Assembly (NCBI GenBank): GCA_001275005.1
Contig: JWZX01002399.1
Location: forward strand, 1 to 39,707
DNA from: Chrysochromulina tobinii
Lineage: Eukaryota
Direction: 5' to 3'
Length of the DNA stretch: 39,707 nucleotides
How positions within the stretch are numbered: the stretch's first letter is position 1; each line of letters begins with the position of its first letter. This document shows, piece by piece, positions 11,801 through 36,763 of the stretch. The notes beneath the pieces are model-generated. The model was not told the DNA's origin. It saw only the letters and a list, made by a program, of their open reading frames with translations, and searched no databases. A program made the translations under genes and the position numbers.

Positions 11801-14800
11801 AAGGGAGCAATCAGCCGTCATCAGAGGTCATCAGAGATGCGATGAGTGGTCATCAACTCACCTGAGGGAGGCGCCATCGGCATTGGAGGTGCCACGCCCG
11901 AGCTCGTCGACGAGCACGAGAGCTGGCCCGCCGAGATTGCGCAAGATATACGTGGTCTCGCGCATCTCGCATGCAAACGTCGAGCCATGCGCCTCAAGCG
12001 CGTCCGCAGCTCCAATGCGCGTGAAGACACGCTGTAGCAGGCCACGTAAACAGAGGCGATCAGAGACGATCAGAGGCGATCAGAGGACATCAGAAGTCAT
12101 CAAATTCAATCAATGGTCATCAGCCCTCGCCTGCAGCAGGGGCACCGTGGCCGCGTCGGCGGGCACGTGGCAGCCGATGTGGGCCAGTAGCACAACCAGA
12201 GCGGTCTGGCGCAGGTACGTCGACTTTCCCGCCATGTTGGGCCCCGTGATGATCTGCCGGGTCGCAATTAGGCAATTAGGCAATTAGGCAATTGGGCAAT
12301 TGGGCCATTAGGCCATTAGGCCATTAGGCCATTAGGCCATTAGCGATCTCAGGCGTGGCTGTCACCTGCAAGTTGGTCGCGTGCGTGATGGCGACGTCGT
12401 TCGGCGTGAGAGGCTGGCCGGGCTCCGCAAACCGCTCGAGGAGCGGGTGACGGCAGCGCTTGAGCACCAAAGGGGCGGCGTGTGCGATCTTGGGACGGCA
12501 GAACGGGCCGTTGCCTCCCCCCTTGTGCACAAAGACGGCGAAGGCGAGCATCACGTCGACGAGAGCGACTGACTCGCCTGGGGAAAGGGGCGCCCACACG
12601 CGCTAAGAGCCCATCATCAAACGCACTCACGCACTCAGCAGGCCATCAGAGGCCATCAGAGGCCATCAGAGGCCATCAGAGCTCATCAGGGGCCATCAGA
12701 GGCCAACAGAGGCCATCTGGGGCCATCTGGGGCCATCAGAGGCAATCAAGCGCGCTCAGAGCGATGCATACAAGCACGTACCCAGGCGGAAGACTAGGTG
12801 GAGCGAGGATCGTATCTCGCCGAGAAGCAATCAAGACAATCAGAGCGATGCATGCAAGCACGTACCCAGGCGGAAGACTAGGTGGAGCGAGGATCGTATC
12901 TCGCCGAGAAGCGCCGAGATCCGCGCCTCCGTCGAGAGGAGAATCTGCTGAATCATCTCTTGTGCGCGCGCCGAGAGCTGCGACGAGATCGCAGCGAGGT
13001 TGCAACGAGATTTCAAGAGGTCCCTCAGCCGCACTCAAGCGAACAACCAGGCGCATCATCATCAGGGGCGTTCATCAGCCGCAATCAATCTCGCCTGCAC
13101 GAGCTGATCCGTTGAGCAAGCCACCGTCTTCTTTGCTTGGGAAGCGATCTTGACGAAGCCCGCACGCTCGACCGTCTCGCGCTGCGCCACTGGCAGCGTG
13201 AGATGGTAGCCCCGCCGCTCAGTCCACACCAGCTTGAGGTCACTCAGCCCAAACTGCTCCGCATACCTGTGGGGAAGTGGTAGGGCGTCGTGGTGAGCAC
13301 CCGCATCACACCAGCTTGAGGTCACTCAGCCCCAATTGCTCCGCGTACCTGTGGGGAAGTGGTAGGGCGTCGTGGTGAGCACTCGCATGCTCAGGCCGCA
13401 CTTGCAAGCTCAGGCCGCACTGCTCAGCGTACGTGTCGCGTAGGTGCTCCATCTCGGTCGTCGAGTCGGTCAGCGTCTCTCGCGCCACGTCAATGAACGA
13501 GCAAACCTACGAGCGTCGTGGCGGGCACTTGAGCCATCAGTGATCATCAGTGAAAATCAGCGGCCATCCGTGGCCATCAGCGGCCATCAGCGGGACACTC
13601 ACCTTCGAGCGCACGGCGAAGAGGCACTCAAGCATCCGTTGGCTCGTCTGCTTGCGGAAGATGGCCTCGTCGTCAATGATGGCGTGGATGCGCGTGCAGA
13701 GCTCGTCGATCTCGTCGGAGGCGAGATTGCCCACGATGGCGCGCAGCAGCTGTGGAGAAGGGGGCAGGGAGGGCAGGGCGGATAGGGCAGGTAGGGCAGG
13801 GCAGGTAGAGGGCAGGGCAGGTAGAGGGCAGGGCAGGAATGGGGCAGGGCATGTAGAGGTCGGGGTTAGGAGGGCAGGTGGAGGTACTTCCGAGATCTGT
13901 CCGAGATTCCGTCCGAGATCGCACCTCGTTCGTGGGCGGCGCCTCCCCACTCGAGGTCATCAGGGAGGTCATCAGTGAGGTCATCAGGGAGGCCATCAGG
14001 GAGATCGCACCTCGTTCGTGGGCGGCGCCTCCCCACTCGAGGTGAGCGCGGCGGCGAGGCGCGGCGCCGCATGCAACGCCGTCTTGAGCTGGAGGACCGC
14101 GGAGATGCCAGCCTTGGCACGCGCGCAGCCGGTCGAGGTGGGGTTCGTCATGAAGAACTTGAGGAGCCGATCCGAGTCCGCAAAGGCGGGAAGCACCTGA
14201 TGAGGGATGCAATCAGAGGTCCTCAGAGGTCCTCAGAGGTCCTCAGAGGCAATCAGAGCTCATCAGAGGCCATCACCTTATGGGCGTCGACGAGGAGCTC
14301 GTCGCGCGCGAGCAGCTCGGAGACGCAATCGAGGCGCGCCGAGATCGTGTCCAGATCTGTCGAGGGCTGCAGCAACAGCGTCCGCAGGTATCGGCTGCCC
14401 GCGGCGGTCTTGCACTGCGCACACCGGGGTAGGCGCCGTGGTGAGCACTTGTATGCTCAGGGATATGGTCTGAGCCCCTCTCAGAGGCACTCAGAGGCAC
14501 TCAGAGGCATTCGGTGGGGCATGCCATCCTCCGATCCGCAGTGTCACCTGGTTGAGCGCGCCGAAGAGAGATGCCTTCGGATCGCCGGTGCGCAGGTTGC
14601 GAAGAAGCTCGAGGTTGGCGACGGTCGCCGGGTCGAGGAGCATCACGCCCTCGACGCTCCGGTACCTGTGGAAGAGAGGGCGCCGCGATGAGCACTCGCA
14701 TGCTTCCGACGCATGCAAAGGGCACGTGGGGAGGGTTGAGATCCGATGGCACGCAGAGAGGCACTCGAAGGGACACTCAGAGGGTGGACGGAGTGCGCAC

Positions 14801-15297
14801 TTGATCCGAAGGGTGCCCTTGACGAAGCTCGCGCCGTCGGACTGCTCGACGGCGTCGACGAGCGCGGCAAGGGCCGAGAGCGCCAGGTATTTGGACTTGA
14901 CGTCCGTCTCGAGCGCCTGCACGTGCGAGCGGTGCGAATAGTGTCGCACGTACCCGAGGCCCTTGATCTCGTTCCAGTTGCGACGGGGCACCTGGTCGCA
15001 GCGCGCGGCCGGGAACTCGGCCTCGGCGACGCGCGCGAGCACGCTCTGGGCGGACGAGGGTGGGAAGAGGATCTGGCGCGGGTTGTGCGACGCGAGCACC
15101 GACAGCGTGCGCGAGTACGCCGCGTCGTCGCAGAAGGAGCACAGCTCGATCGAGAAGTCCGAGAGCCGCAGGCACGCGAGGCCGACCTCGTAGGCGCGGT
15201 TCTCGCAGAGCGCGACAACCGAATCGAGCTCCGGCTCCTGAGCCGCGGCGCGCTCGTCCGCGCGAGCGAAGGGCTGCACGGCGTCGAAGCCGACCAT
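8848..15297 (-). CDS. MSH4: MutS homolog 4 (meiotic), 17 exons: 15297-14801, 14665-14548, 14414-14277, 14196-14011, 13749-13603, 13506-13433, 13266-13095, 12977-12866, 12577-12366, 12253-12131, 12031-11862, 11714-11612, 11448-11241, 11160-11063, 10915-10848, 10494-10380, 10257-8848
   Basis: Hand splicing keeps frame. The N-terminal [17 protein letters not shown] resembles plant MSH4 (VAGLIENRAKEVGMA) and there is no mismatch-binding domain I. Other motifs: [29 protein letters not shown], Walker [31 protein letters not shown], Walker [13 protein letters not shown], and [16 protein letters not shown]. The start codon (15297 or 15408) and the last exon are less certain. Confidence 0.88.
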
Positions 15298-15657
15298 CGG
15301 TACAGGGAGAGGAACACACAGGCGTCTTCGGCCCTTCGCGGGGCCGAAGCGCGGCGACTCTCCGCGGAGGCGCGCGCTCTGTCGACACGGCGCCGCAAAA
15401 GCGAGCATCTGCGACACGAAGATACATGACAAGCAACTCGCAGCTCCCATTCGGTCGGGTCTCGTTGTCCCTTTCCTGAATAAGTGGTCGGCGCCCATCA
15501 CAGGTGGCTCTCGCGATCGCCGCTCTCGCCCTAGCATCCGCAACCGTACGGTACTTAACTTTGTACGTATACACACAGCGCTTACGACACTGCGCTCTCA
15601 AGTCTCAACACCTCTTGTTTCCTCTCTGCTTTGCTGGTCTCCTCTCTCCGCTCTCTC

Positions 15658-18600
15658 TCAGTCGGTGGTGGCGCCAGGCGCGCCGCCGCCGGCGCCGCCC
15701 CTTTGACGCACCCAGCTGCGCACCTTACCAAGGGCGCTACCGAGGGGCTGCTTTGCGCGGTCCAAGCCACGCGGCACCGCCGTGCCCGCCGCCGCCACCC
15801 TCGACACGAGCACCGACGCCTGCGGCGGCGCGTCTGGCCGCGCGGCCGCAGCGGCCGTAGCGTTCACACCCGCAGCGTTCACACCCGCAACGGCCGCACT
15901 CGCAGTCGCACTCGCGGCGGAGGCGGGGGAGGACGGCAGACCATTCACACCCGCAACATTCACACCCTCCGACCATGCGAAGCCTGCCGGTGGCTTCAAC
16001 GGCACCGCCGCCTGACCGGCCGCCTTAGCCACGGCGCCCGCCACGGCGCCCTTGGCGGCGCTGATGGAGGCGCCGGGAGGGACGGCGGCGGCGGCAGCAG
16101 CGGGCTTCTGTAACAGCTTTGGCAGTTGGCCGAAGGTGAGCTTGATGAGCTGCTTAATTGGATCACGCGGAGGCGCGTTCGCCTGAGCCTCGAGTGCAAT
16201 GCGCGTGTAGATCTCGTAAATGTCCTGCCACATCAGGCGCAATCAGCCAGTCATCAGAGGCACTCCTCTGGAGCTCATCAGGCGCAATCAGCCAGTCATC
16301 AGAGGCACTCCTCTGGAGCTCATCAGGGCGTCCTCAGCGGCACTCTGGTGCTCATCAGCCGGAGTTTCTTCAGCGACGATCCGCGCTTATTAGGCAACCG
16401 CCATCAGTGGCGAACCCGGATCCATCAGTGACGAAACGTATCAATCAGTGACGAAACGCCGCGAGCACGAAACGTATCAATCAGTGACGAAACGTATCAA
16501 TCAGTGACGAAACGCCGCGAGCACACCTGACGCTGCGCGGTGAAGGGCGACGGGATGGCGGCCGGGAAGCACTTCTTCATCAGCGAGAATGCAAACACGT
16601 GGCCGGGCGGCGAGAGGGGGAAGATCATGATGATGGTGTACGGCACCAGTGCCATCAGGTCGACGAGAGTACGGCGCACCACCTGGCGGGATCAGGGGTC
16701 ATCAGGGGTCTCAGGGGTCATCAGGTGCCATCAGGTGTCATGAGGTGTCATCACGTGTCATCAGGGGGCATCGGGAGCACCCACCTGGACGTCGGCGGAT
16801 TTGAGAGGCTTGCCTTGGGTGAACGTGCGCAGCAGCAGCGCCACCTCGACTAGATCTCGACACAGGATCCGTATGCCGCGCGCACAGAAGCCGAGCGATT
16901 GGCGAAGGGAGCTGACGGCAAAGCGAATGGAGCGGCCCAGGCGCTGTACTGGGCTGTCGGCGCTTGCGGCATTGGGGAGAGAGAGCTCCCCGGCTAGGGC
17001 TCCCACCTGCATGCAATCAGATGCAATCAGATGCATTCAGGTGCAATCAGGTGCAATCAGGTGCAATCAGGTGTACCCACCTCGGTGAGAAGCGACTCGA
17101 ACAGGATCGCAATCAGGTGCAATCAGGTGCAATCAGGTGCAATCAGGTGCAATCAGGTACAACCATGTGTACCCACCTCGGTGAGAAGCGACTCGAACAG
17201 GATCGCAGCCTCCACCGACGAGTCCGCAGTCCGCACCGACGAGTCCGCACCAGTCCGCACCGACGAGTCCGCAGTCCGCATCGACGAGTCCGCAGCCGGT
17301 GGAGCGCCGACGATAGCTGTGGAAGGCTCGGCGGCGGCTGGGGAGGTGGCGGCGCTGGCGGTGGGGGTCACGACACCGGTATCGACCATCTCCACGAACG
17401 CCTCCGCAGCCACCTCCTCGCCCGAGCTCGGCACCAGCACACACTCGGCTGGCACGCAGACCTCCGCAGACGATCCAAAGAAGCCCTCCTCGACCTTCGA
17501 GCTGCGCTGTACTCGAGGCACCGCGCCCGCCGAGGCGAACGCCACCTGTAGGAAAAAGGGCGCCATGGTGAGCACTTGCATGCAGGGGCGGTGCCTCTCC
17601 GGGGGCGGTGTGCTCGAGGCGAACGCTGGCGTCCGAGGCGTGGGTTCGTCAGGGGTTCGTCAGGGGTTCGTCAGTGGCGTGCGAGGCGTGGGTTCGTCAG
17701 GGGTTCGTAAGGGGTTCGTCAGTGGCGTGCGAGGCGTGAGCTCGTCAGGGGTTCGTCAGTGGTTCACACCTCTGCGCGGGCCTCGATATCGCACCAGCGG
17801 TCGATGTACAGCGCGAGCTGCTGGGCACGCCCGGGCGGGAGTGTGCCCAGCCCCGTCGAGAGCTCGGAGGAGAGCGTGAGGGCGATCATCTGCAGCGAAA
17901 CCGCGAGCAGTTGCTCCAGACCTGCCAAATTAGGGTGCAGGGGACAAGGTGCACACGTGTGCGCTCAGAGTTCGACTCAAGGGCACGGCAGTGGCAATCA
18001 TTGACCATCGTGGGTCATCAGTGGCACTCGTCGGCCATCAGCGGCCATCAGCGCGCACCTTCCGAGAAGGACGCCCTCAACGGCCCCAGCTGATCGTCGC
18101 GCATCGAAGACATCAGAGTAACGAATTCCTCGTACGAGAGGGAGGCGTCGTTGCCGGCGTCGGCGCGCTCGAAGGCCTCCTTGAGCTCCTGCGTGTACGT
18201 CGCGTCCTTGAGCGCGTCCGGCGACAGCAGCGCCGCCGCGCCCGCCTCAAACTCGGACCACTCGAGTTGACCGTTGCCGTCGGTGTCGAGGCCGTCGAAG
18301 ACCTCACGCGTGCGCTCGGCAGCGCCGCCCTCCTGCTCCTCGAGCACGAGGATGTACTCGCGCTGCTTCTGCACCGTCCGGTGCAGCCGGCTCGCCTGCT
18401 CGCACAGCGTCTTGAGGCTCGCCGGCGCCGCCGCCTCACTCGTCGTCGCCAGCGGCAGCGGCGCCGGCGCGCTCCGGCTGGCCGCCTCGATGGAGGCGGT
18501 CAGCTCGCCCAGCGAGCCGGTGAGCGACACTATGCCGCCGTCGAGCACCGCACGCAGCGACGCGATCTCGCTCGCCTGCGTCGGCGCCTTGCACCCCTGC

Positions 18601-18779
18601 TCGGCCGCAGGCTGCACGAGCTCCTGCAGCTCGCGCAGCTGCTGGCTCACGAGCCCGAGGTCGCGCAGCGCGCGCAGCCCGAGCGGCGACGCACGCAGCG
18701 CGCTGTTCGCGCCGACGGTCACACGCACTGCGGCGGAGGCGGTCGTAAAGAACAGGGGCAGCAAGATGACGCGCTCCAT
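15658..18779 (-). CDS. EF-hand + LETM1-like domain protein with an N-terminal signal peptide; 6 exons: 18779-18059, 17921-17770, 17545-17177, 17006-16785, 16682-16527, 16224-15658
   Basis: Hydrophobic N-terminus MERVILLPLFFTTASA and EF loops DTDGNGQLEWSEF and DAGNDASLSYEEF. The spliced GIRILCRDLVEVALLLRTFTQGKPLKSADVQVVRRTLVDLMALVPYTIIMIFPLSPPGHVFAFSLMKKCFPAAIPS matches the LETM1-like motif (RRTxxDLxxxVP...GH...xIPS). All junctions are GT-AG and keep frame. Confidence 0.8.
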
Positions 18780-18953
18780 AGCGTGTGTGGTGTCTCTTTT
18801 CGGCAGGCGCCGCGAAATCCTCAAGATCCAGATCTCTCGCTGCGTCGAGGTGGTCAGAGGGTTTGAATGAGGGCTCCCGAGGCGCCGGCGCGACCGAGCT
18901 GCATGCATTGTGCCCATGCTTGCCATCCAGAACACCACACAACGTCGCCACAT

Positions 18954-18984
18954 GACTTGACTTGACTTGACTTGACTTGACTTG
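18954..18984. repeat. (GACTT)6 pentanucleotide repeat
   Basis: gacttgacttgacttgacttgacttgacttg, between two divergent genes; same unit as 5978-6046. Confidence 0.9.
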
Positions 18985-19078
18985 TCGAAGAGAGTCCCCC
19001 TAGGATACTACCAGCAAGAAGAGAGACGGGCCCGCCTCGCGATTTCTGTTCAGCTGCACCCAGCAGGCCGAATACGCG

Positions 19079-20440
19079 ATGCATCGTCGCGAGGTGGTGC
19101 TTGCGGCCGTGAAGCAGGACGGCAGGGCGCTCAAATACGCTTCTGCCAAGCTGAAGGCCGATCGCGAGGTGGTGCTTGCAGCCGTGAAGCCGAACGGCTA
19201 TGCGCTCAAATACGCTTCTGCCAAGCTGCAGGCCGATCGCGACGTGGTGCTTGCAGCCGTGAAGCCGAACGGCTGGGCGCTCGAATACGCTTCTGTCGAG
19301 CTGCAGGCCGATCGCGACGTGGTGCTTTCGGCCATGAAGCAGGACGTTGTGGCGCTCAAATACGCTTCTGTCGAGCTGAAGGCCGATCGCGACGTGGTGC
19401 TTGCAGCCGTGAAGCAGGCCGGCTGGGCGCTCGATTACGCTTCTGCCAAGCTCAAGGCCGATCGCGAGGTGGTGCTTGCAGCCGTGAAGCAGTACGGCTG
19501 GGCGCTCAAATACGCTTCTGTCGAGCTGCAGGCCGATCGTGAGGTGGTGCTTGCGGCCGTGCAGCAGGACGGCAGGGCGCTCGCATACGCTTCTGTGCTC
19601 GCATACGCTTCTGTCGAGCTGCAGGCCGATCGCGAGATCAGAGAGGCTGCCTCGAAGGCGATCAGAGAGGCTGCCTCGAAGCGCAAAGAAGCGGTCCTGT
19701 TAGCCGAGCTCAAGGCCGTCAAGGGCGCTGACACGCAGGCGAAGACGCAGCCAACCGGCTCTGCACTAGCTTCCTCCTCTGAGGCCGCCGACGCCTCAGC
19801 ACTAGTCCTTGGAGAGGGAGAGCGTCGCCTACTCGCAGACGAGGCGGGCGGCCACTCGTCCCAAATTAGGCAACTCGCAGACGCGGTCCACGTGGAGGTT
19901 AGCATGCAAGATGTGGAGGGAACCGTTTTGGACGGCGATGGCGAGGTGGCTTTCGAGGGCGAAACGTCCCTCGCCGAGCGAAACGTCAGCCTGCAGGCAG
20001 AGGCGGTCGATGTTGAGAGTTTTCCCTTCCGCCGCATCCGCAAGGCTCCATCCCGACTTGACCCAAGCGTGGGCACGCCGAAGAGGAAAGGTTTGAAGCG
20101 CACTTTGGAGCCTCGGACGTCGGCCCGCCGCGCAGCGGCGCCAACCATCAAGCAAGAAGACTTTCTCAACGGCGACATCAACTGTCCATCGTGCGGATGT
20201 GGCGTCCCCGTGAGCGAGCAAGGGTGCAACATGATCACCTGCCGCTCGCCTCATCATACTGGGGGCTCCTGGTTCACCTTTTGCTACCATTGTCGTAAAG
20301 AGTGCCCGGGCGCCCTTCCGTGCCTGAAAAAATGCCCCGAACGGAACGACAAGGCGAGCCGGCTCCTGGCGCGAGAGCTTCTTAACAAGGCCGCAGAGCG
20401 AAACCCGATCATCATTGACGACACCGAGGAGGACGAATAG
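19079..20440 (+). CDS. DUF4116-type 25-aa repeat protein with a C-terminal RBR Rcat/RING2-like zinc domain
   Basis: About 7 tandem 75-bp units encode ADREVVLAAVKQxGxALxYASxxL. The C-terminal CPSCGCGVPVSEQGCNMITC....FCYHC resembles Rcat (CPxC..GCNHMxC...FCWxC). Intronless. Confidence 0.8.
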   Translation: MHRREVVLAAVKQDGRALKYASAKLKADREVVLAAVKPNGYALKYASAKLQADRDVVLAAVKPNGWALEYASVELQADRDVVLSAMKQDVVALKYASVELKADRDVVLAAVKQAGWALDYASAKLKADREVVLAAVKQYGWALKYASVELQADREVVLAAVQQDGRALAYASVLAYASVELQADREIREAASKAIREAASKRKEAVLLAELKAVKGADTQAKTQPTGSALASSSEAADASALVLGEGERRLLADEAGGHSSQIRQLADAVHVEVSMQDVEGTVLDGDGEVAFEGETSLAERNVSLQAEAVDVESFPFRRIRKAPSRLDPSVGTPKRKGLKRTLEPRTSARRAAAPTIKQEDFLNGDINCPSCGCGVPVSEQGCNMITCRSPHHTGGSWFTFCYHCRKECPGALPCLKKCPERNDKASRLLARELLNKAAERNPIIIDDTEEDE

Positions 20441-20996
20441 GTTCTACAACAATCCTGACGGTTTATGTTTCTGTGTCGCGTCTCTGCACAGTCTGACTTC
20501 GCCGGTTCACCGCGCGAATCAAGATACTTTCGAACAGGCGTGCCAGGCTGGGGGAGCCGGGCGGACCGACTGATTTCTGCGGCTATTCTGCGGCCTCGCG
20601 TGAGGCGTTCGTTTGTAACTCGGCGAAGATACAAGCGATCAAGCGAAGATTCACTGGATACCATCGTAAATCGTACAGCATCATACATCAACGTACAGCG
20701 CATCATCATTTGCAATCGCGATTTGTGATTTTGTGATTTGTGTACATGTATCTACAATTGGTCTCTACATTGAGGAAGATAGAGGCCCTTGTGCTAGGGG
20801 GTCCGGTGTGTGTTACGCACTGCTGTCGAGCCCGAAACGGCGCGGTGTGAAAAGGAAGAACCCGCGATCCACGATGTACGCCGCGTACCTCGCATTTCCG
20901 CTGCGTTTGCCGTCGATCGCCGGGCGCGGCCGGCGCGAATTGTTGACGCATCCCGTGTGGCTCCTCGCTCGCAGAACACCGAACCCCAAAATAGCC

Positions 20997-22103: not shown

Positions 22104-22111
22104 TTGCCTCT

Positions 22112-23155: not shown

Positions 23156-26100
23156 TCACGTGAAGACGTCTGTGACTACCAGCCGGAGGCGGTTGCGGAA
23201 GGCGAGCGTTCCCCACACGAGCACCTCCCGCGCTGCCTCGAAGCCCGCTATGTACTCGTCGTACCTGATGAGGGAGGCAATCGGAGGTCATCAGAGGTCA
23301 TCAGAGGTCATTGGAGGTCATCCTCGGCCAAAAAGGCGTCGTACCGGGCGAGCGCGCGCTCGACCTCCCGCGAGCGAAGCGTGTGCAAAGAATACTTGGG
23401 GTGTTCGTGCCCGTTCCGGTGCTCATCCCAATTCGTAACCGACGTCTCGATGGCGAGCCCTTCCCAGCCGGGCAGGCGCAGAGGCGGCGCCACGCTCGAG
23501 GTGAACACGAGGGGTGTGCCTGCATGCAACGCTTCGTACCTGATGAGGGAGGCAATCGGAGGTCATCAGAGGTCGTTGGAGGTCATCAGTGTGCCTGCAT
23601 GCAACGCCTCATACATGTTACGGCGCTCGGGCGTGTCGCCACGTGGCTCGACGGCGAACCGCGACGACGCGAGCAATCTCGTCGCGTTCTCGGCGTCGTA
23701 CTGGGCGCCCATGTGGTTGCTCAACTCGAGCGTCTCCCCTGTGCGCCACACGATCAGGGGTCATCAGAGGTCATCAGCGGTCATCAGTGGTCATCAGTGC
23801 GCCACACGATAAGCGGTCATCAGTGGTCATCCCAGGCGATCCGATCGCAATCCGATGGCAATCCGCGGCAGTCACCTGGGCGATCATACTCCCTGATTAC
23901 ACGGCAATCCGATCGCAATCCGATGGCAATCCGCGGCAGTCACCTGGGCGTAGCAGTTCCTTGAGCCACCCTCGGCCGCAGCACAGGCTGCCAACGAAGC
24001 CAAAGTCGCGCGCGCGCTCCGCCTGTCGCCTCGGGCGCGCGAGCGTCGTGCCGGGCACATAGTACGGGATGTGAACCTCTCGGTGCCAGTCACGCACCGC
24101 GCCTGAGGAGGGACGCACTCAAGAGGTCAACAAAGGCCATCAAGAGGCAATCAGAGGTCATCAGAACGTACCCGGCGGCGGCTCGGCGTCCGTCTCGAGG
24201 CACACGTAACGAATCTTAGGATGACGAAGGCAATCAGAGGTCATCAGAACGTACCCGGCGGCGGCTCGGCGTCCGTCTCGAGGCACACGTAACGAATCTT
24301 AGGATGACGCCAGAGCGTCGTGTACACGTCCTCGCCCGCGCCGATCGACCACGCCTGCTCGCCTATGTAAGGGCACTTGTGACGAGTCATCAGGTGCTTC
24401 TCGGGGTGTGTGTCAAAGTAAGGCCCCACCGATCGCATTGCCGCAAGCAACTTGCGCTCGAATCGGGCGGTGCACCTGATGAGGGAGGCCATCATGATGA
24501 TGAGTAAGGAAGTCATGATCTCAATCAGCGACCAAAAAGGCGATCGGTACAAATCCGACGCAATCAAGCGCCATCAAGCGCCATCAAGCGCCATCAAGCG
24601 CCATCAAGCGCCATCAAGCGCCATCCGACGCGTGCTCACCGACGCAATCAAGCGCCATCAAGCGCCATCAGCGCGTGCTCACAGATGCAATCAAGCGCCA
24701 TCAAGCGCCATCAGCGCGTGCTCACCGGAGGCATGAGCGTAGCTTGTGCCGCTTCGCATTCCACGACCAGCCGTGTGCCCAATGCCGGTTGAGGCACGCG
24801 GGCAGCACGAAAAAGTCCGCAAGCGCCGGGTCGGTGGTGGCCTCGAATGCGGCACGCAGATTCGACTCGACGTGCAGCTCCCACCTAATGAAGGGAGGCA
24901 ATCATGATGAGGGAGGCAATCCTGATGAGGGAGGCAATCATGAGCTCCCACCTGATGAAGTTGTGGCAATCATGATGAGGGAGGCGATCATGAGCCTCAA
25001 TCAGTGGCAGCTCTCACTCGAAGTTGTTGACGCCGCCGCCATCATTCGGGTGGCAGTTGGTCATGCCGAGCTCCCCAAGCTCGTACACGTACATGCGCAG
25101 CGTCCGCGTTGACGAAGCCGAGCCGCCGACACGCGCCGTGTTGGGCGTGCGCTCGTCCTCGGGTGCGACCGGCGCCGTCGTGAGCGCGAGGCGCGCCGGC
25201 CTGGGCGCCGGCAGCGCGGCCGACGGCTGGAACTCGCCGCCGACATCGCTCACGTACCCGCCCACGACGAGGCCGCTGCCGCCGCCCACGTAGCCGCCGA
25301 CGATGGATCCGCCGCCGGGGGCTCCGATGATCACATCGAGTGCTCCGAATCGGTCCTCAGCGAGACACGCGACATCCCTCACCTCGGACACGAGGGCCGC
25401 GTGCACTGCGAGCCATCCGAGAGCGATTAGAGAGCAATTAGAGTGCAATTAGAGAGCAATTATAGAGCGATTAGAGAGCGATTAGAGGTCCATTAGTGAG
25501 CCATTAGTGAGTGACCCGAGAGCAATCCGAGAGCAATCCAAGGCCATCAGAGGTCATCAGCATGCAATCACCTGCACGCATGCACGACTCATCTTCGAGG
25601 CCTTGCGTCCTCGAGTAATTGGCCGTTGAGGCGCCCTTGGGGTGTGTGAAGAGGCCAGCGTTCACGACGACGCACGCCGGGCTCGCGAGGAAGCGGCGCG
25701 CGGCGAATTTGCACCTGGGGATGAGGGGGAGGAAGAGGGGGGAGAGGAGGGGGGAGAGGAGGGAGGGGGGAGGAGGGAGGGAGGGGGGAGGGGGGAGGAG
25801 GGAGGAGGGGGGGGGCGAGGGGGGTGAGAGGCATCCGAGGGCATCAGAAGGCATTCGCGCATGCATGCGCACCAACAGGCGTTCACATCAACAGGCATTC
25901 ACATCAACAGGCATGCATGCGCACCAGGTCACGTCGACGCCCCAGTCAGTCCGCGCTTCGGGCCGGTAGAGCGACGAGAACACCTGTGGGGAAGGCGGAG
26001 GGCGCCCTGGTGAGCACACGTGCATGCCCACGTGGCCGGTAGAGAGCACTTGCATGCATACCTCGATCGCCACCCGTAGCTGGAGCAACGGAAGCATGAG

Positions 26101-27217
26101 TTCCACAAAGTCGGTCGCGCGCGTGCGGCAGCGCGGATGCGGCTTGAGCAAGTCCCAAATCGAGCCGATGATCGCGGGCTGCGCAATCAGCGCTCCGTGT
26201 CGCTGCGCCTCGTGCAAAAAGTGGGCCACGTAGCGCATCGGCGGGATGATGATGTCCTCATCGATCGACCAAATATGGGAGAACTCGAGCGCCCACGCCT
26301 TGCCATATGCGGACAGCGCGTTCGCGATGAAGCGCGACTTGACCTTCTCAGGATAGCTCACGTGGAAGCGCGAGCATCGCTTGTACCATGGCTGCTGAGC
26401 GTACCTGTGGGGGGGTAGTGGGCCGGGGGGGGGGCGCCGTGGTGAGCACTTACATGCACGCGTGTGGCTGGTACCACGGCTGCTCGCGTACCAGCTGTGG
26501 CTCGCGTCGTAGTGGGCGTAGAAGAAGGAGGCGTTACTCAGCCGCGAGATGGTTTCACACGTGGCCTGCACGTTGCTCGCCTGCCCGGTGGTCATCAGTG
26601 GTCATCAGTGGTCCTCAGCGGTCATCAGTGGTCATCAGTGGTCATCAGTGGTCATCAGCGGTCATCAGTGGTCATCAGTGGCCTGCACGTTGCTCGCCTG
26701 CCCGGTGGCCATCGCACACGATCAGTGGCCCTCAGCGGTCATGAGTGGTCTTCAGAGGTCATCAGTGGTCATCAGTGGTCATCAGTGGTCATCAGTGGTC
26801 ATCAGTGGTCATCAGTGGTCTTCAGAGGTCATCAGTGGTCATCAACGGTCCTCAGTGGTCCTCAGAGGTCCTCAGTGGTTCTCAGCGGTCATCAGCAGTC
26901 ATCAGTAGTCATCAGCCGCCTGCACGCAGCTCGCCTGCTTCTGGCCCACGACCATGAAGATGAGTACATTCATCAAAGGTCATCAGTGGTCATCAGTAGT
27001 CATCAGCTCGCCTGCTTCTGGCCCACGACCATGAAGATGAGTACATGGAAGAACGGCACCGCCTCCGGCATCGGATCCATCGGAGACGCACCTGTGGGGA
27101 AGCGCGAGCGCCGTGGTGAGCACGTGCATGCTGGGCGAGCACTCGGTTCGCTTCGTCGGATCCATCGGAGACGCACTAAATGCGAGCACTTGCTCCGAGC
27201 CCGACGACGCCGACGGG

Positions 27218-27254
<37 letters not shown>

Positions 27255-28080: not shown

Positions 28081-28445
28081 TGTGTTGAGGGAAATTTGCG
28101 TTTCCGTTGTGCCGTCCACCTGGTTCCGTCGCGCAGCGCGCAGACTCTGCTGTTTGGCAGTTGTGAAGCCCCGTGTGAACGTTAACACGACACTCGCTTT
28201 TGCCCGCTCGGAATACACGCACCTTACATGACCCCATACGAGACACGGAGCATGCGCGCGCTCGCAGCGTGGAGGATGGAGTGGGCGTCGGCGCAAGCGT
28301 CGCCGTCGGCGGCTTGATGTTAGTAGATGGCCGTGGAGATGTTAGCGAGCAAGCGCCATAGCGGCCAAGCGCGCCTACATAAACTCAAGTGGACACACAC
28401 TACCAAATACCGCGCTCAAACGTGTCCACGCACGTCGACGGTTTC

Positions 28446-30528
28446 CTAACGGCCAGCCCACTCCAATAGTGGCCCCACACCAAGCCAGGGGCTCGGTAGA
28501 GACCCCACAGGCGCCCATGCCGGCATGCGCGGCCGGCCCGTCGCCGCGCACTTGTCGACCTCGCCTCTAGCCTCGCTTGTAGCGCCTCCGACCTTGCCCC
28601 CGACCACCTTACCGACCACCGTGGACTCGTTGCAATACCAGCGTTGCGTCGCATACATCAGATGGCCCCGCTTGATACGGCGCTCGGCGGCGGCGAGGAA
28701 GGTACCGAGGTCGTCGGGCCGCGAGACGGCGCACAGACCATGCCGCGGGTGGCTGAGCGGGTGATGGTGCACGAGCGCCGTATCGAGCGCCAAGGGCGGG
28801 CTCAGCCAGCGGTGCACTGTCGAGTTGGCGCTGAGGCAGAGCTCATGCCACAAGGCGGCGAGGGCGGCCGCGCTTTCCGTCTCCGGCCGGAAGTAGAGGA
28901 CGCCAACCGACTTCTCCTTCTGGACCTCCACGTAATGGTGGGGGCGCACGTTCACAGCACGATGCACGTGCCGCCACGCGCCGTCTCGAGCGCCGTCTCG
29001 CGCGTCGTCCTGATCACCGCGGCTCGCGACGAGGAGAGCGTCGAGCTCAGCTGGGGTGAAGCGCGTCCTCGTGAGCAGCGCCCGTGACAGCGCGGTGGGA
29101 ACGCCCGGGGCGGCGCCCGAGGCCGGGGTGCCCGGTACGGCGCCTTCGTCGAGGAGCAGCTTCCAAGGGCAGTGTGGTTTCGTCAGGCCCGCAGGGCGTG
29201 GCATGCGTGTCCACGAGGTGCCGATGCGCTGCTGCGGGCCCTGTGCAAAGGCGGGCCAGGGGCGAGCCTCGATCGACACATCAGCAAGCGCCGTGCCGTG
29301 CGCGTTCGGAAGCAGTAGCCCGATGCCAAACATGGGTAGGAAGGATGAGTGCTGCTCCGTGAAGGTGTGAACGCGGCTCGGGAGGACGCGAGAGAGCAGG
29401 TGCATCCAGAAGAGGGGGACGCCGCCAAGGTAGAAGGGGCGCATCGTCGGGTTGAGGGGCAGCTTAAGCGTCGTCGTGTCCTGGATGTCATGGAAAAGGA
29501 TGGAGCGGCACCTGCATGATGCATGCATGTACGAATTAGTACATTTAAGCACTCGGGATGATGGGACGTCAGGAGCGAGCAGTTGCAAATTGAGCAAGTA
29601 ACAGTTGCTTGCATGCATAGGTGCGACCCGGGGCAATCAGCGGTGCAAGCCGATGCAATCAGAAGTGCAATCAGAAGGGCAATCAGCGGTGCAAGCCGGT
29701 GCAATCAGAAGTGCAATCCAGCACAATCAGCGGTGCAATCAGGTACAATCAGAGGTGCAATCCGGTGCAATAAACGGTGCATCGCTGCATCATCCAATCA
29801 GAGCACCTCGGCGCCAGACTCTCATAGTCGGTGCGCACACCCATGTAGTCGTGGTCGGCATCGATGAAGCACAGGTCAAAGAGCCGGGCAACGTGGGCAC
29901 GCTGCTGCGGCTGCTGCGGCTGCAGATGCGGCTGCTGTTCCAGAAGCATGTCGAAGGCGTTGCGCGCCATGAAGCGCATGTTGAGTCGCTCGAGCAGATC
30001 CGCCGTGTACTTGGCCACGTGTTCCCTGGAGCTATCGACCGCGAGGCCATGGAAGGCTTTGTTCGTCATCCGTGAGAGATAGGCGCCGACTGTGCATGCG
30101 GTCCATGCGGTGTGCACGCCGAGCTCGACATAGCTCAGTACCTCGCCGTGCGCAGTGGCTTCGATGAGCGCAGAAGCGAGCTGTTTTGGATCTTGCCATA
30201 GCCCAGCACGGCGATTCGAGACCATGTGCACTGCCGCATCGCCATATAGACGCTCTCGACGGGTGTCAGGCACGAGGCCGATGGCGCCGATGGCGCTTGT
30301 GAGCCACGTATGGTTCGAGAGCTTGTTGCACGAGGCTGCCAGGATGCCGCCGACACCCGCACACAAGCGATTGTCGGTGGAATCAGCTATCGACTCGCAG
30401 CTGAGGTGAACTGGGGCACTGCAACGCATTGATAAATAGGGGTTCTGGAGCAGCTCCACGAACCCCTTGCACTCCCACGGGTAGATTATTGCAGCGCGCC
30501 AGCATCCGACCACAAAAACGACTACCAA
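28446..30528 (-). CDS. Class I SAM-dependent methyltransferase (Methyltransf_24-like); intron 29806-29512; true start uncertain
   Basis: GLWQDPKQLA..SYVELGVHTAWT (motif I), LAVDSS and FDLCFIDADHDYMGVRTDYESLAPR, spliced in frame to CRSILFHDI. Confidence 0.75.
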
Positions 30529-30712
30529 GATGAGAAAATTGAAGTGCTAACCGAGTTCCTGTGGAAGATGCATGCGGCTCTGTTGGAGTTAGCGTGACAC
30601 AAAGTGGATTCGCCTTGCTGCGTGTTGCCGAGTGGCAATTGAACGTGAATGTGAACAGGATGTTGATGAAGAAGGCAGCCGGGAGTTCTCGGGGCTCCCC
30701 AGGAGACCGATC

Positions 30713-33700
30713 ATGTCGACGCCGAGTAGTCTTCTAACGCCCGAGGAGATGGTGGAGGCGACTGGGCTGCTGCGTGCCATGCGCAACTTCCGCACGGCGG
30801 CCAGCAAGCCCATGCTCGCGTACCCGAAACCGCTGGACGCGCCTCACGGGCTGCCCTTCAGTGATGAGAATGGCACGGTGGACGGAGGAGGCATCGGCAC
30901 TCGCGCCGGCTTCAAATGCGGTTGGGAGTTCGGCATCGCCCAGTGCGCGGTGCTCTTTCTGCCGCGGGGACTGCCCTTGGATGGCGAGTGGGCCACTGCG
31001 GTAGACTGGGCCAACCGCGCCATCAACGCAAACCTCACGAAACTTATGCCCGGCCGCGGCCGTAACAGCTCCTTCAATCCTCTACGCTACGTCGCGTTCA
31101 ACCCAGCAGTCATCGATGAGCACAACGTGCTCATCCGTGCGGCGCCAGACAAGCTTTCCATTAACATGGATCGAGAGTGGTCGCCTGGCCTCGAGTACTT
31201 TGTGCACCTGCATGACGGTCAGCTCAAGGCCGCCTTCCTCGGCAGGTATGATTGCCGCCGATGGCCTCGGATGGCCGCGGATTGCGCCGCATTGCACAAA
31301 TGGTTGAGGTGCTACCACCGATTGCCGCAAGCACATATGATTGAGGTGCCACTGATCGCCACAAACAAAATGATGATCGCCTCAAACACATATGATTGTG
31401 GTACTGATCGCCATGACCGGCCGTCCACGGCAGTGACCCACGCGGCATCTGGCTCGACCGTTACACTCTGCTCGCCGTCTACAATCGTGCGCACACTCCG
31501 GACGTGCTCGGGTTCCGATTCGGCAAGGTGAGGGTGCTCATGTACGCACGCAACCTATCGCAAGGCGTTACCGGTACGGAGGTGCGCTTGCGACTTGCCG
31601 GCGCTCGCAATTGGGAGAAGAATTGGAGCCCATTTGAATGCCCGATGCATGCGGAGTGCGCGGGAATGCTCTACCTGAGCTACGCGCTCAGCCCCGAGCA
31701 CGTCGTGATCTCGTGCGAGCTCGCCTCGGGCAACTGCCAACGCGCATACAATACCTCGTCTGCGGCCGTGTGGGAAGGCGTCAACGACCGGTGAGAGCTT
31801 GGGCGGCCTCTGATGGCCTCTGATGGCCTCTGATGGCCTCTGATGACCATTGACGTCCTCTGATGACATCAGATGACCTCTGATGGCCTCACTGAAGGCC
31901 TCAACTGTTTGCATCTTTGGTTGGCTCCCTCATAAGGATATTTGATCACCCGCGCCTCTCGACACCACCGGTGCTCGTGCGAGATCGAGATCGAGATCGA
32001 GATCGAGATCGAGATCGAGATCGAGATCAGGCTCGAGGCCGTTACCTCGCGATTGGCCATTACCGAAGCGGGCATGCCTTGTATTCGCACTTCTGGTACG
32101 AGATGCAGGTAAGTGCCCTACGCATGACCCACTGATTACTTGCTTCATCAGGTGAGTGCCCTACGCATGGCCAATGATGGCTTGCTTCATCAGGTGAGTG
32201 CCCTACGCATGGCCCACTGATGGCATGCATTCATCGAGTTCCCTCCTCATCGTCCCCTATGGCCTATGAGTGCATACCCATCTGGGATTGCATGCAGGCG
32301 GAGCCGCCCTTTGCGATCCTCCGCACGTCCCGACCGTTTCGATTCTTCTCGGGCGGGCGCACAATGGAACGCCTGCCGCCCTGGCCCAACATGAACCTGA
32401 GCGCCCGAGACGGCGCCCATGACGACGCCCGAGACGGCGCCCGAGATGGCGCCCGAGATCACGGCCGAGGTCATAGTCTTCCCAAAGAGAGCGCCGGCTA
32501 CTCCACGACCATGGGCTATCACAAGGAGCAGTGCGTCTGATTGCGCTCGATTGCGCTCGATTGCGTCCCTATTTCAAGGAGCAGTGCGTCTGATTGCGTC
32601 TGATTGCGTCTGATTGCGTCTGATTGCGTCTGATTGCGCTCGATTGCGTCCCTATTTCAAGGAGCAGTGCGTCTTGGGCTCGTTGAGCCTGATTGCGGCT
32701 GATTGTGGTCGATTGCGTCCGATTGCGAATCTGTCTGCGTCGTTGTCTCGTCCTAATTTGGATGCGTCCGACGCCCTCCCCTTCAGGTACGTTTCGGGTC
32801 TTTACCTTTCCTCAGACCGTCAACGGCTCGTCTTGAGCTACGGAGTGGGCGACAGAGGGGCGATGCGCACCGCCGTGAGCCTCGCGCCAGACTGCCTACG
32901 TGTGATTGCCCGACGTAATCAGACGCAATCAGACGTAATCACGCCGTGAGCCTCGCGCCAGACTGCCTTCGTGTGATTACGTCTGAGTGCGCCGCAGTGA
33001 GCCTTGAGCCAGCGATCGACAGACTGATTGCGTCTGAGAGCGTCTGAGTGCACCTCTGAGTGCACCTCTGAGTGCACCTCTGATTGCCTCCCTCATCAGG
33101 TGAGGGTCGATCAAGCGCTCGCGATGCTCAACGACGCGGGCGACGCGACGCAGCTCTACCGGTCGTGCCTCGCGACACGCCCCAGGGGCAGCGCATACTG
33201 CGACGAGGTCGGCTGCGACCGGGGACAGTCCTCCTCCGACGGCCCGACGTTAGTTCTGTGCGGAAGCTGCCCTGTGTGATTGCCGCGAATCGCCTCCGAT
33301 CGCCCCCTAGTTGCCTCCCTCATCACTGTGATTGCCGCGAATCGCCTCCGATCGCCCCCTAATTGCCTCCCTCATCACTGTGATTGCCGCGAATCGCCTC
33401 CGATCGCCCCCTAATTGCCTCCCTCATCACCGAGGGCAGTCCTCCGCCGACGGACCGACGGGAGTCCTGTGCGGCGGGGAGGTGCCCTCATTCTATCCCT
33501 CATGCCAACTGTGACGGCGTCGGATTGCATGGCTGACGGCGTCGGATTGCATGGCTGATGGCGTCGGATTGCATGGCTGACGGCGTCGGATTGCATGGCT
33601 GACGGCGTCGGATTGCATGGCTGACGGCGTCGGAATGCATGGCTGATGGCGTCGGAATGCATGGCTGATGGCGTCGCGGATGGGCTCCCTCATCAGGTGC

Positions 33701-33930
33701 GGCACGACGGCCTCGAAGTTCTCTGCTGCGATGGCCACTAATTGCCACCGAGTGTGTCCTTCATCAGGTGCGGCACGATGGCCCCCAAGTACCCGTACAA
33801 TTACCACGGCGACCGGGCCGTCGAGATGGCCGCGATGCTCGAGGAGCGCCGGGAGCTCAAGCACCCGTCGGAGGTGGCGCGCAGCCGTCTGGACGGCACG
33901 ATCGCACGATTGGAAGGGCTTGCTATGTAA
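30713..33930 (+). CDS. Five-bladed beta-propeller carbohydrate-active enzyme (beta-1,2-mannosyltransferase GT91/GH130-like); 7 exons: 30713-31245, 31434-31790, 31937-32108, 32298-32530, 32787-32874, 33100-33257, 33768-33930
   Basis: Spliced motifs AFNPAVI, G|SDPRG (EDPR-like), WEKNWSPF, YLSYALSPEHVV, PRLSTP, YSHFWY..AEPPFAILRTSRPF, QYVSGL and LVLSYGVGD. Junctions keep frame. Confidence 0.68.
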
Positions 33931-34018
33931 TCTCGCTATGGAAGGCTCGATCGACCGATTGGAAGGGCTTGCCATGTGATCTCGCTATGGAAGGCTCGAT
34001 CGACCGATTGGAAGGGCT
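33907..34018. repeat. 49-bp tandem repeat spanning the stop codon of the beta-propeller gene (about 2.3 copies)
   Basis: cgattggaagggct starts at 33907, 33956 and 34005. Confidence 0.9.
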
Positions 34019-34326
34019 GCATATAACTGCCAAAAAAGGAAAGCGGTGCGGCGCGCGCGCGCGGAGTTGTGGAAGGACTCAATTTGGATTTGAAGGGACG
34101 GTGGGCGCCTGTTGCAGGCGCATGTCGCTGAGCGTCCAGTGCGTCCAAAGGAGGAACAACGGAATCCTTCGGCGGATATCGCCATCATGCAATACAAGCT
34201 CCGACCGTTTCGAAATAGTATTTTGTGTTTTCAGAGAACCTATTCGATTACCTGCTGTTGAATATAACCATGACAGTTGACACTCCTGCATACTGTATGT
34301 TCAGACGAGAGGATCAGCAATCACCA

Positions 34327-34590
34327 GGCTATTTATGGTATGGTAGAGATCCCCGCCGTCGGGCACGTAAAGGCTCTCCGACAGCGGGGCACGCACAAAT
34401 GCACATCTCCCCACCCCGAGTTCAGCGCCGCCCGCATCATGCTTTATGGTATGGTAGAGATCCCCGCCGTCGGGCACGTAAAGGCTCTCCGACAGCGGCA
34501 CGCACATCTCCCCACCCCCAGGTCAGCGCCGCCCGCATCAGGCTTTATGGTATGGTAGAGCGTCGGGCACGTAAGCTCGCCGACAGCGGC
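34327..34590. repeat. About 100-111-bp imperfect tandem repeat (about 2.4 copies) between convergent genes
   Basis: tttatggtatggtagag...cgtcgggcacgtaa...ccgacagcgg starts at 34332, 34443 and 34544. Confidence 0.88.
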
Positions 34591-34639
34591 TGTACTTAGG
34601 CGAGTCTGTGCTCTTCGAGCCAATCGAGGGTCGCGACAT

Positions 34640-36763
34640 CTAGCCGCGCATCGCGACTCCAAGGACGTGCTGCTTGAGCTGTATCCAGTCGTCCGCCGTC
34701 CGCTGGTGGCTGTCCCGCAGCTGGGGGTTGGCGCCGGCGAGCAGCAGCTGCTGGACGATGCGCGTTTCGCCTGCGAAGCATGCGACCATGAGTGCCGTAA
34801 TACCTAGGCTTTGCTGCGCGTTGACGTTCGCTCGTGCAGCGAGGAGCACCTGATGAAGGATGCAATCAAGAGGTGTCATCAGAGATCATCAGAGGTCATC
34901 AGGTGTCATTGAGCATCGAGAAGAACCTCCACACCATCAGAGGTCATCACAGGCAAGGTATCCTCGAGCAGCGAGGAGCACCTCCACAACTGCACTGCGC
35001 CCCGCAGCAGCTGCGAACATGAGCATCGTGCGACCCGTGGAATCTCTGCCGTCCACATCCCCACCTGCCCAGATCCAGTCGCGGACCCGAACCGCATTGC
35101 CCACTTGGGCAGCCTCGATCAGCTCGTTGGGTATGGCGGTCGCGACACGTGACGCGCCATAGGGATCCGTGTCAAGCTGCCACACGCTTGTCATGCCCAG
35201 CATCCGCCGCACGCTTTCCATGTTAGGCGACTGCGGCATGGAAGCTGCGGACAGGCCCATATTAGGCAGGCGGCTCGGCCCATCATCCCTGATTTGGGAC
35301 ACGTCGGGCACGTCCATATCAAGCATGCCCACGAGAGTCTGAAAGTCATCCCTCATTTGGGACGCGTCGGGCACGCCCATATCAGGGACGCCCACGAGAG
35401 TCTGAAAGTCATCCCTCATTTGGGACGCGTCGGGCACGCCCATATCAGGGACGCCCACGAGAGTCTGAAAGTCATCCCTCATTTGCGCGTCGGGCACGCC
35501 CATATTAGGGACGCCCACGAGAGTCCTGAAGTGGTGCTCCCTAATATGGGAGAAGTGGCGCTCGAGCCGCACCTCCGCCGCGAGAGGGATCGGAGATCTG
35601 GACGAGATCGGAGTGCTGGACGAGATCGGACGAGATCGGACGAGATCGGTTGAGATCGTATGCGATCGGACGCGATCGGACGCGATCGGACGAGATCGGA
35701 TGAGATCGGGCGAGATCGGACTGCTGGACGAGAGTCCGGACGAGTGACCGGACAAAGGAACCGCTCCGGACGAGGCGGGGCTGGAAGAGGGGGACGCGAG
35801 GCTCTTGACACGCACACCCTGGATGCTTCGTTCGGGATGCGCACTTGCCATTTTAGGCAACTCATCCGCCGAAATCACCTTGAGGCGCCCGGCGTGCACT
35901 TGCATCAGTTGAGCGTGCCGATGGCGCACCTGTGGAGGGTCGGGCGCCGCAGTGAGCACTTGCAAGGGGCGCCGGAGTCGGGCACTTGCATGCAGGAGTT
36001 GAGCGTGACAATGACTCATAAGGGCGCCGGAGTCGGGCACTTGCATGCAGGAGTTGAGCGTGACAATGACTCGTACCGAGTTCTCCGTGCGCCCAGGCAG
36101 AATCTCCGCGATCTTGCGCCATTGCTTGCCGAGGCGGGCAGCCGCCTCAAGGAGAAGGGCGTCCTCCCGAGGCATGAACGAGAAGCGCGCACTCGGAACC
36201 CCCGGCGCCTCCTCCTCCTTGACCTTCGCCTTCGCCTTCTTTGCCTTCTCCTCAGTCTTCTTTTTCAACGTCATCTCCGCTGCCTCCTGCTCCTTGAGCG
36301 CCTTGAGGTCGAACTCGCCGGCTGCGGGCGCCTTGGACATGACCACCGACGCGGGGTCCGGCGACTGGAGCACCTGCTTGAAGCCTTCCGCCGCCTCGCG
36401 ACAGATCGACTTGGCCGATCCGCTACTTCCCGTGTCGCCCTTGCGCTTGAAGGACCCCGGGTTGGAGGACCCGGGGCTGGCAAGGGACCCGGGGCTGGCT
36501 AGACCCAGGCACTCCTCTTCCATTGGCGTGCACCTTTGGTTCATCAATCCTCGCCCGGTTGCGGCCGCCTCCTCGCGCGCGGCCGAGGCCGCCACCCATG
36601 CCGCCGCCTCCGCCTCTAGTTCCAGCTGCTCGGCCAACACCGCGGCCGCACGCGCCGTCGCGATCACTTCCGCCTTCATGCTCGCATCCATGCTAGCATC
36701 CATGCTCGCATTCAGCGTGGCCTGGAGCTGCTCGCGGCCGGTGGGCGTGCCCGGCTCGGCCAT
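34640..36763 (-). CDS. Myb/SANT + ankyrin-repeat protein; exons 36763-36077, 35929-34982, 34849-34640
   Basis: Myb: FMPREDALLLEAAARLGKQWRKIAEILPGRTENS|VRHRHAQL. Ankyrins: LIEAAQVGN..DVDGRDSTGRTMLMFAAAAGRSAVVE|VLLAARANVNAQQSLGITALMVACFAGETRIVQQLLLAGANP. Internal ~63-bp repeats (FQTLVGVPDMGVPDASQMRDD) at about 35294-35530. Confidence 0.8.

Follow-up and report, generated by a model that had tools for sequence, protein, structure and literature searches.

The origin of new spliceosomal introns is a long-standing question. Transposons with short target duplications account for the known bursts of intron gain; gains by break repair and by tandem duplication are scattered single cases, and in the tandem-duplication cases the duplicate is said to supply both splice sites. 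The sections of the literature cited here describe several systems close to ours. Introner target duplications are 3-9 nt, family-specific and usually accompanied by inverted ends, and introners of Symbiodinium and of Polarella classes 4/5 and 6/8/10 bring their own 3' site, the 5' site being supplied by the target duplication (PMC9860276; bioRxiv 10.1101/2020.10.14.339549). Introners in marine Chrysochromulina MAGs have a 4-nt duplication, their own 5' site and a co-opted 3' site (PMC9860276, Fig. 2C legend). Daphnia pulex gains introns through repair of staggered double-strand breaks, with repeats of 4-12 nt and inserts mostly of unknown source (PMC4202315), and tandem genomic duplication has been described as another route (PMC3265369; PMC4974935). 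Replitron-1 of Chlamydomonas comprises elements of 0.9-3.6 kb with short terminal direct repeats, inserted after RG (PMC10288648).

The introns of Chrysochromulina tobinii that we describe here are introner-like insertions whose target duplication is very long and variable. They were found by following up a motif in one window, by which we mean the whole stretch of 39,707 nt of contig JWZX01002399.1 that was analysed; one protein encoded in it is identical to a protein recorded under the name C. tobinii. As in Symbiodinium and Polarella, a repeated family occupies unrelated sites with its own acceptor and a duplication-derived donor, leaving the message unchanged; unlike the introners described there, the duplications vary, measure about 20-50 nt and form the entire 5' half of the intron, there are no inverted ends and the patch ends vary. 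The marine MAG introners share the genus name and likewise lack terminal inverted repeats, but they differ in which splice site they own and in their 4-nt duplication (PMC9860276). The likeness to Daphnia is that new introns are polymorphic, directly repeat part of the adjoining exon and have secondary internal repeats; here, though, the repeats are several-fold longer and the inserts belong to one recurrent family derived from introns (PMC4202315). A duplicated exon segment turns into intron as in tandem genomic duplication (PMC3265369; PMC4974935), but this happens at many sites and the junction carries a foreign patch. Like the introns here, Replitron-1 combines a target duplication of variable length with a fuzzy end that stems from the parental flank, but it is not described as intron-forming in the parts of PMC10288648 cited. 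Our literature search, which covered sources other than subscription journals (later Chrysochromulina genome papers among the latter), returned no paper on this family. C. tobinii is in the genome list of PMC9860276, and 'tobin' occurs in no other supplement row among those listed. The screen in that paper demanded similarity at both intron ends, which our introns do not have: their 5' halves are target copies, and a donor module is common to a few copies only; screens of this kind would miss such families.

Every locus we analysed was seeded on the motif. The family comprises at least 133 loci, with 157 distinct acceptor sites in unrelated genes against none in 5 Markov controls. The cassette, a shared intron end of 40 nt, is preceded by a copy of the following exon at 115 of the 157 sites and in 8 of 775 swapped control pairs; another count gave 81/119 against 4/589 swapped pairs, with 6/67 in a local control. 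The general layout is exon 1, an exon copy starting with GT, the cassette ending in AG, then exon 2. The GT of the copy is the donor, and splicing it to the cassette's AG leaves the message unchanged. The copy begins 35.7 +/- 8.5 nt upstream of the core (115/128 within 60 nt), with GT in 106/128 and GC in 9/128. The matched duplication is 10-53 nt long (median 28, n=115), not a short fixed 3-9 nt as in MITE-type introners, and its variable length is what is expected of non-LTR retroposons and SINEs; by eye the lengths have no 10-nt periodicity. Introns have a median length of 78 nt within a tight range of 64-90 nt, and their lengths are evenly spread over the three frames. At the remaining 42 sites, which include three MutS-gene introns in the window, no exon copy reached the threshold.

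Within the window, the 15-nt core with up to 3 mismatches has 17 matches, compared with a mean of 3.43 and a maximum of 8 in 100 shuffles. The introns and their parts are as follows.

27092..27176, minus strand: intron of 85 nt in the glycosyltransferase gene; spliced in RNA of X10, the joint being ambiguous over 21 letters
27176-27156, minus strand: perfect copy of the start of the next exon, 21 nt, beginning GT (alignment 21/21), followed by a 24-nt spacer and the cassette at 27131-27092
27071..27091, minus strand: exonic counterpart of the 21-nt duplication
26405..26491, minus strand: intron of 87 nt in the same gene; RNA joints in X1 and X10; exon copy of 25 nt at 26491-26467 (22/26 columns match), cassette 26457-26405
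25984..26061, minus strand: intron of 78 nt in the same gene; RNA joints in X1 and X10; partial core, exon match of 11 nt, cassette 26027-25984 with a 2-nt insertion
17546..17769, minus strand: intron of 224 nt in the EF-hand gene; RNA joint in 4/4 runs; the GT is followed by a repeat array, with a decayed exon copy at about 17640-17605 and the cassette at 17583-17546
14666..14800, minus strand: intron of 135 nt in the MutS gene, a 45-codon gap against P0002; cassette 14703-14666; exon copy not detected by alignment
14415..14547, minus strand: intron of 133 nt in the MutS gene, tblastn break at Q|C; core 14456-14431 with a different acceptor; exon copy not detected by alignment
13507..13602, minus strand: intron of 96 nt in the MutS gene, a 32-codon gap against P0002; degenerate tail-less core 13530-13507 at its end
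13267..13432, minus strand: intron of 166 nt in the MutS gene with two stacked units (tblastn against P0002, alignments)
13432-13349, minus strand: unit 1, exon copy 13432-13409 (19/24) and cassette 13390-13349
13348-13267, minus strand: unit 2, exon copy 13348-13309 (37/40) and 5'-truncated cassette 13308-13267
35930..36076, minus strand: intron of 147 nt in the Myb gene, predicted from sequence; two partial cores accompanied by decayed exon copies, cassette 35967-35930 at the end; frame open spliced or unspliced

The sequence-only reading had counted nine intron ends sharing a 3' cassette. The motif is real, and its nine copies lie on the minus strand in sense orientation to their host genes, but homology to P0002 places the copies at 13390 and 13308 in a single intron, 13432-13267, which brings the number of introns to eight. 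It passed over the degenerate copy at the end of 13602-13507 (in the MutS gene, which it called MSH4) as well as partial copies at 36048, 35993 and 26057. Its consensus ends in CCACAG, but the copy at 14456 continues with GGTGTGCGCAG instead. The 3' cassette is indeed shared; of the 5' parts it called locus-specific, most duplicate the exon that follows, and one 5' module recurs in 15 copies. It missed the unusual feature, the long target duplication that supplies the donor. Pfam confirms MutS domain II, EF-hand and Myb among its gene names, gives LETM1 a weak match in a homologue (E 0.037), and on the pieces scanned confirms neither the glycosyltransferase nor the ankyrin name.

Use of the motif's AG as acceptor was named beforehand as one of the points on which the proposal could fail, and RNA contigs splice four window introns exactly there: 17769-17546, 26491-26405, 26061-25984 and 27176-27092 (the last in X10 only), all GT-AG. 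The MutS-gene introns have no RNA joint among the matches listed. A U2 intron ends with a branch A 18-40 nt before YAG and a pyrimidine tract; spacing and conservation fit this here, and GCTCAC is likely to be the branch site.

Among 7 aligned pairs, two orthologous sites are precisely empty in a relative 1.7% diverged. L073 differs from L007/L032 by the presence of 81 nt with a perfect 34-nt duplication, and L015 from L016 by 78 nt with a 32-nt duplication carrying 2 mismatches. Loss by recombination between such long repeats would look alike, so these sites leave gain and loss unpolarised. Together with the number of loci and the splicing at the motif's AG, they support the earlier suggestion of a mobile or templated acceptor module, and the family shows what introners broadly show: similar introns at unrelated sites, precise splicing and (unpolarised) empty orthologous sites. 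By eye, neither polymorphic insert has the complementary ends that terminal inverted repeats would give, and no short terminal direct repeats were seen at either.

These introns join a long duplicate of the target exon to a shared intron patch, and we hold with moderate confidence that they arise when staggered breaks are filled by copying family introns. A staggered DNA break would leave overhangs of 20-50 nt, and fill-in would yield the exon duplication; 3'-overhang breaks give tandem duplications in mammalian cells, according to the part of PMC8355091 cited, and plain tandem duplications of 47-140 nt are polymorphic in the same loci as the introns. Microhomology-primed synthesis would then copy the 24-26-nt core with variable flanks from an existing family intron, sometimes a neighbour in the same gene, and could insert it in either orientation. 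Exonic selection would retain only perfectly spliced products, mostly a duplication from a donor-like G|GT with a patch ending in AG, more rarely a patch that supplies the donor with a duplication ending in AG, or a duplication that itself contains AG|GT. Repair of breaks with existing introns as template, rather than a transposon with fixed ends, is suggested by copies that are tail-less, antisense or mirror-image. A non-LTR retroposon would be expected to show a fixed 3' tail and graded 5' truncation; here most copies end at AG, 72 are without the tail and truncation into the core is rare. Among solitary copies failing the tail filter, 13/28 are flanked by repeats of 13-53 nt against 0/266 controls. 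L111 and L071 hold antisense copies within introns, which weakens strictly sense-only templating on nascent RNA, and the mirror-image cases L023, L104 and L108 have their own donor with an AG from the duplication.

As for the template, the L073 patch equals the end of the neighbouring intron as it stands in L007, with junction microhomologies of 2 nt and 4 nt; the neighbour in L073 itself has a variant missing from the polymorphic copy. For L015, insertion and neighbour disagree at 2-3 core positions, which leaves one insertion of two with a local donor shown. Tails are within 2 edits in 32/149 same-locus pairs against 1001/16,996 other pairs, and at least 6 upstream bases are shared in 13/149 against 83/16,996, though pairs are not independent. 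Cores are no more alike within a locus (mean mismatches 3.1 vs 2.5), a comparison biased by the strict seed.

Should this reading hold, it might extend further. We would put forward only tentatively, and with more doubt than belief, a genome-wide, active, transposase-free route from intron to intron in which new introns are half exon and half parent, perhaps accounting for most of the alga's introns. The footprints of transposon bursts and of break repair or duplication occur together here, at hundreds of sites or more; the alga can be cultured and has both intron-present and intron-absent alleles, which opens the mechanism to testing.

The alternative that survives best, although we consider it unlikely, is a non-autonomous element moved by an encoded enzyme, whether by LINE/Penelope target-primed reverse transcription or a Replitron-like HUH transposase. 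Its insertions would have a variable target duplication, with one end fixed and the other fuzzy and derived from the flank of the parent. The core has a sharp 5' edge (11 tailed copies 5'-truncated, 174 intact), more in keeping with a defined element than with opportunistic copying; 128/157 sites terminate in CACAG, some unrelated loci have 5' extensions in common, Replitron-1 makes variable duplications and fuzzy ends as already mentioned, and a Replitron protein was recovered at one C. tobinii locus (PMC10288648). However, both ends vary, with mirror-image products, terminal direct or inverted repeats are absent, and Rfam at gathering threshold has no match within the window. The same footprint appears at a second, unrelated class of intron end (20/39 against 0/105 controls, plus one empty site), and in the cited part of PMC10288648 such signatures belong to no other Replitron family. 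Four further intron-end classes have 1-6 copies each, too few for judging the footprint.

Less probable again, and in our opinion improbable, is that old introns were rewritten in place: cassette and exon start were duplicated, the original 5' part was precisely lost and gene conversion spread the cassette, empty alleles being precise losses between long repeats. Stacked units such as 13432-13267 and arrays of core plus target piece would follow naturally, tandem duplications are frequent at intron edges, and core divergence does not correlate with duplication decay (rho 0.10, p 0.16, n 186), which also counts against the break-repair reading. Yet this requires exact deletion of an old intron at most of 115 sites and must account for the tight length range, and in L033/L059 the copy within the intron has stayed ancestral and does not follow its own exon; concerted evolution of the two repeat copies is not seen there.

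An extended splicing signal under selection, read by a lineage-specific U2 snRNA or protein as had also been proposed, is very improbable: GCTCA and the G-CGC positions are nearly invariant in 59 copies failing the strict seed, most copies have a branch-like A at 22-30 nt from the AG and orthologous cores differ at 3/240 sites against 7/300 upstream (by eye not significant, with too few differences), but 13/17 RNA-shown introns of the two genes with RNA joints lack the motif, which is thus not a required splice signal, whole introns are polymorphic, antisense and acceptor-less copies exist, and the exon copies are left unexplained.

Two other candidates were set aside. Reverse transcription halting at the lariat branch does not fit a core that extends 14 nt beyond the likely branch A, and RNA structure offers a 5-pair hairpin as the commonest fold, but with z-scores of -0.7 to +0.6 in 8 modules and one-sided changes. 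Viral contigs gave no motif match; prokaryote genomes gave two of the most degenerate, tail-less form, which we take as chance. In runs X15 and X18, none of the three glycosyltransferase-gene introns showed an empty allele. Read depth over the motif is far above exon depth, a difference that is not a copy number, and X15 covers 25911-26241 unspliced.

The cassette introns, which share a 3' end of about 40 nt (a core followed by a pyrimidine tail), are real, spliced and polymorphic, and they are an introner-like gain of a new variety with unusually long target duplications. A 15-nt core has 17 matches in the window with at most 3 mismatches; shuffles average 3.43. The nine copies named earlier occupy the minus strand and are sense to four genes, one of which (the EF-hand gene) encodes a protein that matches one named Chrysochromulina tobinii with 100% identity. 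The motif is present as the sequence-only reading described it, but its nine intron ends are eight introns because the copies at 13390 and 13308 sit within a single intron, 13432-13267, as a tblastn alignment to a homologue of 77% identity shows. Nor do all copies end in CCACAG, since the one at 14456 ends otherwise, and a further degenerate copy ends intron 13602-13507.

The cassette AG had been taken for a working acceptor, and RNA joints across four window introns bear this out. Intron 17769-17546 has a contig joint in all four runs. Both of the RNA runs examined for the other three introns join across 26491-26405 and 26061-25984, and one of the two across 27176-27092. All four joints are GT-AG and terminate at the cassette; they come from contigs aligned at 90% likeness with a best side of 26-153 nt. 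Two runs whose kind is not on record (X15 and X18) contain none of these joints.

The 5' parts were thought to be locus-specific only. Mostly they duplicate the start of the following exon: an exon copy scoring at least 12 is found at 115 of 157 sites, counted after merging orthologues and tandem duplicates, against 8 of 775 swapped pairs. Metagenome loci and the window together hold 279 unique cassette copies (at most 6 mismatches; 0 in five Markov controls). Tail, AG and sufficient flank were present in 186 of them, and an anchored exon copy in 128. It starts 35.7 +/- 8.5 nt upstream of the core, with GT (106/128) or GC (9/128), preceded by G in 100/128, and the RNA joints make its first base the donor. 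The match covers 10-53 nt (median 28), mean identity is 94.6% with 27 of 99 long copies perfect, and the introns measure 64-90 nt (5th-95th percentile). Among window introns the exon copy is clear in three, partial in three and absent in three of the MutS gene. Other window introns (17007-17176, 24103-24255, 26581-27011 and 12578-12866) contain copies of the upstream exon end with a donor; the RNA joint 17176-17007 splices out five residues that are extra in a public protein, P0004.

Anatomy, splicing and empty alleles of these introns are matters of observation. For their origin we lean, somewhat beyond an even chance, towards staggered-break fill-in with a patch copied from a family member already present. 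The long overhangs of such a break would be filled in, duplicating the target, as happens at 3'-overhang breaks in mammalian cells (PMC8355091); microhomology would allow the cassette, or patch, to be copied off a family member; and selection would retain the products that splice perfectly. This reading is weakened because the core edge is sharp, because core divergence is unlinked to decay of the duplication, because one of two polymorphic patches mismatches its neighbour, and because neither enzyme nor intermediate has been seen. An enzyme-driven element is possible and rather unlikely. Like the Symbiodinium-type introner, the cassette brings its own acceptor and takes its donor from the target duplication; unlike it, the cassette introns fail tests for a short fixed duplication and inverted ends. 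Published target duplications of introners are 3-9 nt (PMC9860276) or 3-8 nt (bioRxiv 2020.10.14.339549), a review describes short ones only (PMC11282704), and Daphnia intron-gain repeats are 4-12 nt (PMC4202315). Replitron-1 resembles the cassette introns in its variable duplications and fuzzy end (PMC10288648). The 2022 introner screen included C. tobinii and required both intron ends to match; the examined part of its supplement has no introner row for the species (PMC9860276), and the main text of a 2025 follow-up does not name Chrysochromulina (PMC12130899). Our literature search, whose scope was journals outside subscription, found no description of the family.

Precise presence or absence of a cassette intron was seen in two of seven aligned orthologous or paralogous pairs of metagenome loci, each of the two 98.3% identical. 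L073 has 81 nt more than L007 (itself identical to L032, an independent assembly), made of a 34-nt perfect duplication and 47 nt; L015 has 78 nt more than L016, with a 32-nt duplication carrying 2 mismatches. By sequence comparison the two empty sites would fit either gain or loss. In L073 the patch is identical to the end of the adjacent intron in the L007 version, while L073's own neighbour differs by one change; for L015, the patch and the adjacent intron differ at 2-3 core positions. We judge it improbable that old introns were rewritten in place. L034 and L048, 88% identical, have one cassette intron in common, with the L048 exon copy still 29/30 identical, and differ at other sites; judging from this pair, the family has long been active. 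At window 23301-23589 one X15 contig jumps from within one intron to the next intron's end with 16 other letters, either a deletion allele or a repeat artefact.

The strict 26-nt pattern matched at least 133 metagenome loci and nothing in viral contigs; prokaryote genomes gave two sites only, taken as chance. Seven recaptures among 90 loci of a one-strain set put strict loci at ~570 (95% range 280-1,400). Looser densities, 0.23 per kb in the window and a biased 0.37 per kb in locus flanks, would imply more copies over the 59-Mb genome (PMC4580454), and the recapture figure is no firm total. Strand agrees in 338 of 355 pairs of copies within a locus. The conserved block begins abruptly at GCATGC and stops after GGCGC, and the pyrimidine tail before CACAG is highly variable (156 forms among 186 copies). 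Among 59 copies that fall outside the seed GCTCA hardly varies, so the core may be selected as a branch site. RNA folding gave nothing favouring a structure, and Rfam had no match in the window. That the cassette is simply an extended splice signal, with GCTCA on its side and 13 of 17 RNA-shown introns of the EF-hand and glycosyltransferase genes having none (4 have it), we can hardly credit. Tandem repeats of 18 and 21 nt with the core's 3' half, possibly coding, occur in L037 (minus strand 2133-2250) and L050 (1908-1975).

Same-locus copies more often share tails (32/149 pairs against 1001/16,996 other pairs) and upstream bases (13/149 against 83/16,996), the pairs not being independent, and their cores are no more alike than those of other pairs. 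Whole copies number 174; the core is intact and the tail missing in 72, and 11 are cut at the 5' side and tailed. Many tail-less copies are secondary arrays. Solitary copies failing the tail filter lie between 13-53-nt repeats in 13 of 28 cases, against 0 of 266 controls, and at least two end in AG. Two antisense copies (L111, L071) lie within introns, between repeats. Fifteen copies have an upstream module in common, and a longer form (L023, L104, L108, L065, L087, L119), in which a donor module of its own precedes the core, is a candidate parent intron. In three cases the layout is a mirror image, the patch carrying the donor and the AG coming from a 19-25-nt duplicate of the upstream exon's end. 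Arrays of target piece plus core, ending just past the core and often at a short target match, occur in L005, L066, L090, L038, L098 and window 35930-36076.

A second, unrelated intron-end family consists of 10-nt repeat arrays ending CCTCCCTCATCAG (window 23265-23344, 23514-23594 and 14195-14275; L034). Here too the long-duplication footprint is seen, at 20 of 39 sites against 0 of 105, and one precise empty site separates L034 from L048 (empty). The family's end and its repeat unit are complementary, resembling a weak inverted terminus.

Two further features were recorded in the window:
19004-20440, intron-less ORF with seven 75-nt repeats and a Cys-rich end
38267-39706, intron-less ORF, 3'-open, with a weak GNAT match
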